A DNA stretch of 64,000 nucleotides from Escherichia coli (lineage in GTDB: Bacteria; Pseudomonadota; Gammaproteobacteria; Enterobacterales; Enterobacteriaceae): the NCBI RefSeq assembly GCF_036507355.1, contig NZ_AP027877.1; one strand, written 5' to 3'. A program made the translations under genes and the position numbers. Numbering within the stretch: position 1 is the stretch's first letter; every line of letters starts with the position of its first letter. Below, piece after piece: positions 41,603-43,827 of the stretch. The notes under the pieces were generated by a model. It was not told where the DNA came from and ran no database searches. It was given only the letters and a program-made list of their open reading frames with translations.

Positions 41603-41718
41603 TCCGCGTCGCTTTCCGCGCGTGGGCGTTGGCGTGACTCATCGCGCTGATGTATTATGGCGCGCTATCCATCCGGGCAGAGGCCTGGCTGATTGTTTCC
41701 CCCGAAGTCACCAAGATC

Positions 41719-42012
41719 ATGGCCAAAGAACAAACGGACCGTACGACATTAGATCTGTTCGCGCACGAGCGTCGACCGGGACGACCGAAAACAAATCCGC
41801 TTTCGCGCGATGAACAGCTGCGTATTAATAAACGCAACCAGCTAAAACGCGACAAAGTACGTGGCCTTAAGCGTGTCGAACTGAAGCTGAACGCGGAAGC
41901 TGTCGAGGCGCTGAACGAGCTGGCGGAATCGCGCAATATGAGCCGTAGCGAACTGATCGAAGAGATGTTAATGCAGCAACTGGCGGCGCTGCGTAGTCAG
42001 GGCATCGTTTAA
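41719..42012 (+). CDS. ybfE: LexA-regulated small protein (CopG/ribbon-helix-helix-like)
   Basis: Start placed at [47 protein letters not shown] (97 aa) inside track ORF 41650..42012. Confidence 0.8.
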
Positions 42013-42151
42013 ATTTCCACTTTCATGTAGCACAGTGTGCAGTCCTGCTCGTTTGCTGATTCCGCAAGACTGCCTGTTCTGCTATGATTGCCTTTATCCG
42101 TGGGCAATTTTCCACCCCCATTTCAATAAGTTTCAAGAGGTTATTTCACTC

Positions 42152-42682
42152 ATGGCTATCACTGGCATCTTTTTCGGCAGCGACACCGGTAATACCGAAA
42201 ATATCGCAAAAATGATTCAAAAACAGCTTGGTAAAGACGTTGCCGATGTCCATGACATTGCAAAAAGCAGCAAAGAAGATCTGGAAGCTTATGACATTCT
42301 GCTGCTGGGCATCCCAACCTGGTATTACGGCGAAGCGCAGTGTGACTGGGATGACTTCTTCCCGACTCTCGAAGAGATTGATTTCAATGGCAAACTGGTT
42401 GCGCTGTTTGGTTGTGGTGACCAGGAAGATTACGCCGAATATTTCTGCGACGCATTGGGCACCATCCGCGACATCATTGAACCGCGCGGTGCAACCATCG
42501 TTGGTCACTGGCCAACTGCGGGCTATCATTTCGAAGCATCAAAAGGTCTGGCAGATGACGACCACTTTGTCGGTCTGGCTATCGACGAAGACCGTCAGCC
42601 GGAACTGACCGCTGAACGTGTAGAAAAATGGGTTAAACAGATTTCTGAAGAGTTGCATCTCGACGAAATTCTCAATGCCTGA
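42152..42682 (+). CDS. fldA: Flavodoxin 1
   Basis: Start placed at [48 protein letters not shown] (176 aa) inside track ORF 42035..42682. Confidence 0.96.
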
Positions 42683-42887
42683 TGTGATGCGGCGTAGACT
42701 CATGTCTACGCCGTATTAATAGATAATGCCAATCAAAATAATTGCTACAAATTTGTAACTTTTGCTGTTGTACCTGTACAATGTTCCGGTGTTCAAGTGG
42801 CCTTGCCGTTGTAAATGTAAGCTGTGCCACGTTTTTATTAACAATATTTGCCAGGGACTTGTGGTTTTCATTTAGGCGTGGCAATTC

Positions 42888-42906
42888 TATAATGATACGC
42901 ATTATC
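42888..42906 (+). promoter_or_regulatory. Fur box (autoregulatory iron box) in the fur promoter region
   Basis: tATAATGATAcgCATTATC matches the GATAATGATAATCATTATC consensus at about 15 of 19 positions and overlaps a TATAAT hexamer. Confidence 0.65.
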
Positions 42907-42978
42907 TCAAGAGCAAATTCTGTCACTTCTTCTAATGAAGTGAACCGCTTAGTAACAGGACAGATTCCGCATGACTGA
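42892..42978 (+). CDS. uof: uof leader peptide (28 codons), translationally coupled to fur
   Basis: ATG at 42892 gives MIRIISRANSVTSSNEVNRLVTGQIPHD; its stop overlaps the fur start (ATGACTGA). Length matches the reported 28-codon uof. Confidence 0.6.
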   Translation: MIRIISRANSVTSSNEVNRLVTGQIPHD

Positions 42979-43417
42979 TAACAATACCGCCCTAAAGAAA
43001 GCTGGCCTGAAAGTAACGCTTCCACGTTTAAAAATCCTGGAAGTTCTTCAGGAGCCGGACAACCATCACGTCAGTGCGGAAGATTTATACAAACGTCTGA
43101 TCGATATGGGTGAAGAAATTGGTCTGGCTACGGTATATCGCGTACTGAACCAGTTTGACGACGCTGGTATCGTCACCCGCCACAATTTTGAAGGCGGTAA
43201 ATCCGTATTTGAACTGACACAGCAACATCACCACGATCACCTGATCTGCCTCGACTGCGGCAAGGTTATCGAATTTAGTGATGATTCCATCGAAGCGCGT
43301 CAGCGTGAAATTGCCGCAAAACATGGCATTCGCCTGACTAACCACAGTCTCTATCTTTACGGTCACTGTGCCGAAGGCGATTGCCGCGAAGATGAGCACG
43401 CGCACGAAGGCAAATAA
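42971..43417 (+). CDS. fur: Ferric uptake regulator
   Basis: 148-aa ORF MTDNNTALKKAGLKVTLPRLKILEVLQEPDNHHVSAEDLYKRLIDMGEEIGLATVYRVLNQFDDAGIVTRHNFEGG... Confidence 0.97.
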   Translation: MTDNNTALKKAGLKVTLPRLKILEVLQEPDNHHVSAEDLYKRLIDMGEEIGLATVYRVLNQFDDAGIVTRHNFEGGKSVFELTQQHHHDHLICLDCGKVIEFSDDSIEARQREIAAKHGIRLTNHSLYLYGHCAEGDCREDEHAHEGK

Positions 43418-43435
43418 GCCAGTCTGAACGAGAAA

Positions 43436-43461
43436 AGCCAACCTGCGGGTTGGCTTTTTTA
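43436..43461 (+). terminator. Rho-independent terminator downstream of fur
   Basis: agccaacc-tgcg-ggttggct stem followed by tttttt. Confidence 0.75.
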
Positions 43462-43500
43462 TGCAAGGGAAATAAGAAAAGCGAGAGTTACAGCTCTCAC

Positions 43501-43827
43501 TTATTTGTTATTACTGCGAATTTCCTGCCAGACCTTATCACAATCGGCTTTCACCGCCTGATCATTTCCGGTTTGCGTTGCACGCAGACACTGCTGATAA
43601 TCCAGTACGCGTACACTTTCCTGGTCGGCAAACTGCTGATGTTGTTTCTCTTTCTTCAGCACGTTTAACACGCTCTGGCAGGCTTCAATTTTTTCTGGCG
43701 AACCTTGTGCGGTGTTGATACAGGCGCTGTATGCCTCTTTCAGACGGCTGTCTTCCTGTGGCGCGGTTGATTGCGCACAAGCCACCAGCCCCGATGCCAT
43801 CATGGCGATGAGAATCAGTTTTTTCAT
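43501..43827 (-). CDS. chiQ: Lipoprotein encoded downstream of the chitoporin gene
   Basis: 108-aa ORF MKKLILIAMMASGLVACAQSTAPQEDSRLKEAYSACINTAQGSPEKIEACQ... with lipobox LVAC. Confidence 0.85.
   Translation of the reverse strand: MKKLILIAMMASGLVACAQSTAPQEDSRLKEAYSACINTAQGSPEKIEACQSVLNVLKKEKQHQQFADQESVRVLDYQQCLRATQTGNDQAVKADCDKVWQEIRSNNK

Follow-up and report, generated by a model that had tools for sequence, protein, structure and literature searches.

The spacer between fldA and fur of Escherichia coli very probably carries two classes of sigma-70 promoter, a proximal one that is repressed by Fur and yields a short fur mRNA without the upstream reading frame uof, and a distal one that yields a uof-fur mRNA. 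The proximal class would be composed of TTTTCA-17-TATAAT with its start at A42901, the -10 hexamer forming the left end of the Fur operator. The distal class would be composed of TTGTAA-18-TACAAT with its start at G42789, an OxyR-type site (42719-42755) being placed against its -35 hexamer. Because the promoter of the Fur box starts transcription past the uof ATG, fur mRNA is made without uof; the whole of uof would be carried only by the distal transcripts and by read-through from the fldA and ybfE promoters. All positions given here are those of the window, that is, the entire stretch of 64,000 nucleotides that was analysed.

Locus and sequence comparison

The window displays the E. coli gene order ybfE-fldA-uof-fur. 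In the RefSeq annotation, expressed in window coordinates, ybfE extends from 41719 to 42012 and fldA from 42152 to 42682, the fur coding sequence (148 aa) occupies 42971-43417 on the plus strand and chiQ is located on the strand opposite to fur. The upstream ORF uof, designated 'fur leader peptide' in RefSeq, comprises 28 codons at 42892-42978 on the plus strand (MIRIISRANSVTSSNEVNRLVTGQIPHD). An earlier note on this DNA, prepared from the sequence alone, had claimed that uof and fur overlap. The overlap is indeed present as ATGACTGA at 42971-42978 (plus strand), where the end of uof, with its TGA at 42976-42978, overlaps the beginning of fur, with its ATG at 42971-42973.

Positions 42000-43500 of the window match 5424 of the 5426 complete E. 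coli genomes with an identity of at least 95%. The locus is the same as that of the fur promoter-operator of E. coli K-12 (de Lorenzo et al. 1988; furpa/furpb in EcoCyc/RegulonDB), to which the sequence is essentially identical, a few SNPs separating the window from K-12 with no difference of substance. At position 42784, between the distal -10 hexamer and its start, the window has a T and K-12 MG1655 a C (ACAATGTTCCGG and ACAATGTCCCGG, respectively), so that the strain is not a K-12. A search of Rfam returned no family match in or near the fur leader. Sub-threshold matches were obtained between fur and chiQ, at 43427-43508 on the minus strand, to STnc370 (29 bits for a gathering score of 54) and to isrD (20 bits); they overlap the terminator hairpin of fur and are probably chance matches to this terminator.

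The fur loci of 80 Enterobacterales were compared, and the fldA-fur spacer from 21 genera was assembled into an alignment, referred to as A1. The footprints apparent in this alignment are (i) ATAGATAAAAGCAAT.AAAATAATTGCTACAAATTTTTAACTTTT ... CCTGTACAATG, which corresponds to the distal promoter with the block that precedes it; (ii) CTTGCAGTTTTCATTTAG ... GGCAGTTCTATAATGAGACGCATTA, which corresponds to the proximal -35 hexamer, TATAAT, which does not vary, and the left Fur half-box; and (iii) AACAGGACAGATTCCGCATGACTGA, which corresponds to the Shine-Dalgarno (SD) sequence and start of fur and is almost invariant in the 21 genera.

Mapped transcription starts

Transcription starts were taken from Table S1 of Kim et al. 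(2012, PLoS Genet), a genome-wide collection of 5'-triphosphate ends obtained from MG1655 in exponential phase on M9-glucose, with enrichment of the primary transcripts by Terminator exonuclease. The coordinates were converted according to window position = 752840 - MG1655 coordinate, fur (709423-709869) and uof (709862-709948) being on the minus strand of MG1655 (Kim 2012). The read numbers of the starts considered below for the short fur mRNA, the uof-fur mRNA and the minor end upstream are low (46, 8 and 5) and originate from one condition. The strongest start of the fldA-fur spacer is that of the short fur mRNA at A42901 on the plus strand (MG1655 709939, 46 reads), which leaves a 70-nt leader and whose printed flanks end in ...TTTTCATTTAGGCGTGGCAATTCTATAATGATACGCA and ...TTCTATAATGATACGCA. 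It is located 8 nt past TATAAT and 9 nt past the A of the uof ATG, on the first base of uof codon 4; RNA initiated at 42901 is therefore devoid of the uof AUG and cannot encode uof. The uof-fur mRNA starts at G42789 on the plus strand (MG1655 710051, 8 reads, assigned to uof; flank ...TTGTAACTTTTGCTGTTGTACCTGTACAATGTCCCGG), 103 nt before uof. A minor and weak 5' end is found at A42758 on the same strand (MG1655 710082, 5 reads), 134 nt before uof. Further upstream, the start of fldA is mapped at 42044 (MG1655 710796, 5 reads) and that of ybfE at 41667 (MG1655 711173, 889 reads). The same table contains a 5' end at A42964 (MG1655 709876, 28 reads), 7 nt before the fur ATG. An RNA with this end would be without SD sequence, as the end falls between AGGA (42957-42960) and the fur ATG; it could reflect a weak internal promoter (TAGTAA, 42950-42955) or be a processing or decay end.

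Two RNAs were also detected by Sinha et al. (2018, RNA 24:1496) on northern blots hybridized with a uof probe, a uof-fur RNA from Puof, upstream of uof, and a fur mRNA from Pfur, 'located within the uof ORF'. A database map of the EcoCyc type (PMC7867234) places +1uof upstream of uof and both +1fura and +1furb inside it, the Fur box overlapping the -10 of Pfura. The same publication locates an OmpR site inside uof, upstream of +1fura/+1furb. Such a placement fits poorly with a start situated 9 nt into uof, so the starts recorded in databases may be some bases off 42901. The supplements of SMRT-Cappable-seq do not mention these genes.

The earlier note had reasoned that transcription would begin downstream of the uof start codon if the TATAAT hexamer were the -10 element. 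This reasoning proved correct, as the hexamer works as a -10 element with its start at 42901 (Kim 2012; Sinha 2018). The option that the proximal promoter lies further upstream, considered in the same note, is to be abandoned since TATAAT itself drives this mapped start. A start upstream of 42892 from a promoter that does not use the hexamer, which the note regarded as evidence against it, does exist at 42789, but it does not displace the start of the hexamer and both coexist.

The proximal promoter and the Fur operator

The Fur operator, or Fur box, TATAATGATACGCATTATC (42888-42906) agrees with the Fur consensus GATAATGATAATCATTATC at 16 of 19 positions. It is the sole site of the 64 kb with no more than three mismatches to this consensus, 0.01 being expected by chance. 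Both its location and the presence in it of the uof ATG (42892-42894) are as the earlier note had described them. The overlap with TATAAT reported there is confirmed as well, at coordinates that had to be corrected from 42886-42891 to 42888-42893: the Fur box begins with the proximal -10 hexamer (plus strand), which fills its first six positions and shares its own final two bases, A and T, with the uof ATG. The proximal -35 hexamer found by the promoter scan is TTTTCA (42865-42870, plus strand), separated from TATAAT by a 17-bp spacer, the two hexamers totalling 10/12 matches to the consensus. In alignment A1, TATAAT is invariant across the 21 genera and GTTTTCATTT at the -35 is conserved in all of them. 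With its spacing, its start located 8 nt past the -10 and the conservation of both hexamers, TTTTCA-17-TATAAT thus has the features of a sigma-70 promoter. The Fur box overlaps this promoter, as it spans -13 to +6 of the 42901 start and includes the -10 hexamer. At a distance of at most 140 nt upstream of fur, TATAATGA is present in 72 of the 80 Enterobacterales loci.

Binding of Fur to this site is documented in the literature. Holo-Fur shifts a 110-bp fragment carrying TATAATGATACGCATTATC in EMSA, and the sequence is called there the Fur box of the fur promoter (PMC10318462). A Fur ChIP-exo peak with uof,fur as its target was reported at 4301615-4301627 in the iron-replete strain KO11FL (PMC10164565). 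As uof is located at 4301601-4301687 in KO11FL, this peak corresponds to positions 42906-42918 of the window, at the 3' border of the proximal Fur box. Of the nine strains, a single one has a peak listed as uof (PMC10164565). Iron-loaded Fur bound at 42888-42906 would exclude RNA polymerase and thereby ensure negative autoregulation, which we infer from the fact that the operator covers the proximal -10 hexamer (-13 to +6). Fur might possibly act in addition as a roadblock to the transcripts begun upstream. The title of a 1988 publication by de Lorenzo is said to imply a CRP site at the fur promoter. The best match to TGTGA-n6-TCACA in the fldA-fur spacer reaches 7/10 at 42816-42831 (centre at -77.5 of the 42901 start); it was rejected as being at chance level, 174 positions of the window scoring at least 7/10.

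The distal promoter and the site upstream of it

The hexamers of the distal promoter are TTGTAA (-35, 42753-42758) and TACAAT (-10, 42777-42782), both on the plus strand. Both were found by the promoter scan. The former is part of a conserved block of alignment A1. The latter is located 7 nt upstream of 42789, and GTACAAT is invariant, or nearly so, in the 21 genera. TTGTAA-18-TACAAT matches the consensus at 9 of 12 positions and has a mapped start at 42789, which makes it a sigma-70 promoter as well. Binding of the RNA polymerase holoenzyme to the uof/fldA spacer was observed by genomic SELEX, and TTGTAA-18-TACAAT is listed for uof-fur in that study (Shimada 2014).

A site resembling the OxyR consensus, ATAGATAATGCCAATCAAAATAATTGCTACAAATTTG, is located at 42719-42755, from -70 to -34 of the 42789 start, and adjoins the distal -35 hexamer. 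These 37 bp represent the best match of the 64 kb to ATAGnTnnnAnCTAT-n7-ATAGnTnnnAnCTAT, with 14/20, a score that taken alone is at chance level since shuffled sequences contain a mean of 1.7 such sites per window. The match ranges from 14 to 17/20 in all 21 genera, with E. coli among the lowest scores and 17/20 attained in Klebsiella, Raoultella and Kluyvera. Within the site, conservation amounts to 0.93 in the columns where the consensus specifies a base and to 0.82 elsewhere. Zheng et al. are said to have obtained OxyR footprints on the fur promoter in 1999. Reviews mention OxyR and SoxRS as regulators of fur. The assignment of 42719-42755 to OxyR is one that we infer from the sequence together with these reported footprints.

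The uof reading frame

The open reading frames that begin at the conserved ATG vary widely among the 80 loci. An ORF of 28-30 codons ending in ATGACTGA is found in 36 of them, whereas 7 use for their end the alternative frame that also overlaps fur (ATGA). Only 4-20 codons are left in Salmonella arizonae, Citrobacter sedlakii, Klebsiella oxytoca, Raoultella, Pantoea and others. Four further loci (L056 and L058, which are from Buttiauxella, L055 and L061) have the ORF joined in frame to Fur. In these four loci the ATG of TATAATG is located about 66-69 nt upstream of fur and is followed by no stop, which results in a conceptual Fur protein with 22-23 additional N-terminal residues; if the proximal start is conserved there, the fused ATG is absent from the short mRNA. 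The fur start of an Enterobacter asburiae locus (L044) reads ATGACAGA instead of ATGACTGA, the uof stop is gone and the ORF, of 49 codons, continues in another frame into fur, a natural variant in which the stop/start overlap is broken. A mini-ORF of two codons, ATG AAG TGA (42935-42943), is present in another frame inside uof. The loss of 1 nt in species such as Salmonella arizonae and Citrobacter sedlakii joins the upstream ATG to the frame of this mini-ORF, and the resulting ORF stops at the TGA of the latter, 30 nt before fur.

Alignment A1 displays a poorly conserved mid-uof region, with indels that are not multiples of three, and an invariant uof/fur overlap ATGACTGA. Given the varied ORFs that stand behind a kept ATG, the conservation of this ATG is attributed to the -10 hexamer and the operator, not to uof. 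No excess of variability at the third position was observed in codons 6-17 of intact uof, the summed variability being 2.86, 1.41 and 2.27 at positions 1, 2 and 3 in a small sample of 22 distinct sequences. Such a distribution would fit a uof that matters through being translated rather than through its peptide product.

No canonical SD sequence precedes the uof ATG, and folding predictions place the uof AUG of the long RNA in a weak hairpin formed by the palindrome of the Fur box. This AUG is carried by the RNAs starting at 42789 or 42758 and by read-through RNAs, and is absent from the most abundant fur-specific RNA (42901). As relayed by reviews, Vecerek 2007 found that uof is translated and that the translation of fur depends on that of uof. 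The overlap between the uof stop and the fur start (AUGACUGA) would allow coupling by termination and reinitiation on the RNAs that carry uof, and uof and fur are presumably coupled in this manner here. Other starts were considered for the short RNA and rejected. The GUG at 42940, taken as the in-frame start of a shortened uof, is replaced by GTA or GTT in Klebsiella, Raoultella and Kluyvera. The 5'-terminal AUU was judged an unlikely leaderless start, as leaderless initiation in E. coli requires AUG.

The fur leader and RyhB

AGGA (42957-42960, plus strand), the SD sequence of fur, precedes the ATG of this gene by 10 nt. Folding predictions keep it largely paired, with P(unpaired) of about 0.25, in the 110-nt short leader as well as in the 222-nt long leader, the predicted masking pair being formed by UCUGUC (42919-42924) and GACAGA (42959-42964). 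The pairing of the SD sequence in these models would agree with the reported need for upstream translation. Were the translation of fur strictly tied to that of uof, the predicted pairing in the short leader would count against the reading preferred here.

A candidate core for pairing with RyhB is GAGCAA (42911-42916, plus strand), which is complementary to U42-C47 of RyhB and includes the partners of G44 and C45. This GAGCAA/UUGCUC complementarity was read directly from the window and a verified RyhB sequence. The hexamer corresponds to uof codons 7-9; the long RNA contains it, and so does the short one, at a distance of 10 nt from its 5' terminus. Regulation requires nucleotides G44 and C45 of RyhB (Sinha 2018, citing Vecerek 2007), and RyhB lowers the level of the short fur mRNA, not that of the uof-fur mRNA (Sinha 2018). 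Unrestricted RNAduplex calculations of RyhB against the leader produced unrealistic whole-molecule pairings. A windowed scan of the leader with the RyhB core produced many sites of about -13 kcal/mol, none of them at the genetically implicated region, and did not single out GAGCAA. The authors of PETcofold found likewise that the published RyhB interaction was not predictable. It is proposed here, tentatively and as a possibility rather than a favoured reading, that a large share of Fur synthesis may bypass uof coupling, especially at low iron when the operator is vacated. RyhB would then mainly pair with the short RNA at GAGCAA instead of blocking the translation of uof, and uof coupling would be confined to the OxyR, SoxS and read-through transcripts. 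This proposal is partly foreshadowed by Sinha 2018.

Alternative explanations

The start at 42901 can be disputed in two ways. TATAAT might not be a working -10 element and might be kept only as a part of the Fur box, in which case the real promoter would be located upstream and every fur transcript would contain uof. The existence of the distal promoter, with its mapped start at 42789, is in line with this explanation, and so is the coupling model of Vecerek, which according to reviews takes uof-fur as a unit. It is nevertheless very improbable, as the strongest start of the spacer is positioned exactly 8 nt past TATAAT, itself separated by 17 bp from TTTTCA, as the short fur mRNA is visible on northern blots (Sinha 2018), and as TATAAT and GTTTTCATTT remain invariant in genera whose Fur box, degraded in its right half, reaches 11-13/19. 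An equally small probability is attached to the 42901 end being generated by RNase cleavage of longer uof-fur transcripts instead of by initiation. The method of Kim 2012 enriches triphosphate ends; although such exonuclease enrichment is never complete and the end begins with AUUAUC, an AU-rich stretch of the kind preferred by RNase E, its position matches a near-consensus promoter, it outnumbers the starts of its supposed precursors, and published maps put the fur promoters inside uof (PMC7867234; Sinha 2018).

With initiation at 42901 retained as the preferred reading, the origin of the RNA that does contain uof has to be considered. Read-through from ybfE and fldA, rather than the distal promoter, might be its main source, which is judged unlikely while remaining the most serious of the alternatives. 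RNA-seq established that ybfE-fldA-uof-fur are co-transcribed as an operon with three promoters (Conway 2014), and the ybfE start totals 889 reads as compared with 5 for fldA and 8 for the distal start of uof (Kim 2012); the LexA-regulated promoter of ybfE may contribute much of the read-through into fldA-uof-fur. A stem-loop is located right after the fldA stop, at 42690-42713, with a 10-bp GC-rich stem (CGGCGTAGAC-TCAT-GTCTACGCCG) followed by TATTAATAG and without U-tract. The scan did not classify it as a terminator, and in other genera compensatory changes preserve its stem (e.g. GGCGCAG...CTGCGCC); such a hairpin would fit a leaky terminator or a stabiliser that permits read-through from fldA to fur. 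On the other hand, a dedicated start is mapped at 42789, its promoter belongs to the best conserved blocks of the spacer, and the uof-fur unit persists in stationary phase while ybfE and fldA fall (Conway 2014). The suggestion of the earlier note that uof is translated mainly from the fldA read-through transcript is consequently retained in part: read-through contributes but is not the sole source, because the distal promoter (42789) in the fldA-uof spacer supplies uof as well. The same note had pointed out a second Fur-box-like sequence after fldA, at about 42723-42746. This sequence is present, at 42722-42745 (gataatgccaatcaaaataattgc) and thus inside the OxyR-like site, but it does not qualify as a Fur site. 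A second genuine Fur operator at 42722-42740, cooperating with the proximal box, is improbable: GATAATGCCAATCAAAATA does match the Fur consensus at 14/19 in an AT-rich region near a promoter, yet this is a chance-level score, expected about 0.9 times per 64 kb (sites with at least 14/19 number 3 in the window and 0.87 per shuffled window). In the 20 other genera, the match of these columns drops to 8-12/19 even though the block is conserved. No Fur ChIP-exo peak is reported at the upstream box, the sole uof/fur peak being located about 170 bp downstream (PMC10164565), and the box, which spans -67 to -49 relative to the distal start, does not overlap a core promoter. The upstream box is most likely a putative OxyR site of the distal promoter, and the likeness that it bears in E. 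coli to a Fur box is a coincidence originating from AT-rich repeats. Annotation should accordingly treat it as a probable OxyR site belonging to the distal promoter, rather than as another Fur operator.

Comparison with known systems and significance

The fur control region is textbook material, and the puzzle raised by the earlier note is already answered in print, as two promoter classes are known from the literature and databases. In 1999, Zheng et al. reportedly described an OxyR-activated transcription of fur and a SoxS-activated fldA-fur transcript. The window compares with that system by the OxyR-consensus-like site at the distal -35 hexamer and by the position of fldA directly upstream, with read-through; 42719-42755 would represent the OxyR footprint. 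The features shared with the uof-fur/RyhB system of Vecerek, Moll and Blasi (2007), as portrayed in reviews, are a uof of 28 codons, its stop over the fur start and the RyhB-complementary GAGCAA. As portrayed there, the model usually involves one uof-fur mRNA, whereas the mapped starts indicate that the most abundant fur-specific RNA is without the uof AUG. The fur promoter of Yersinia enterocolitica has in common with the window the order fldA then fur and a Fur box in the spacer, the spacers being 86% identical according to the authors (PMC7867234). The same authors state that uof is absent from Y. enterocolitica, which agrees with the patchy conservation of the ORF among the 80 loci. The share of Fur that is produced from the short mRNA devoid of uof, together with the translation of this mRNA and its targeting by RyhB, would bear on the reach of the uof/RyhB model of 'iron-responsive decoding'.
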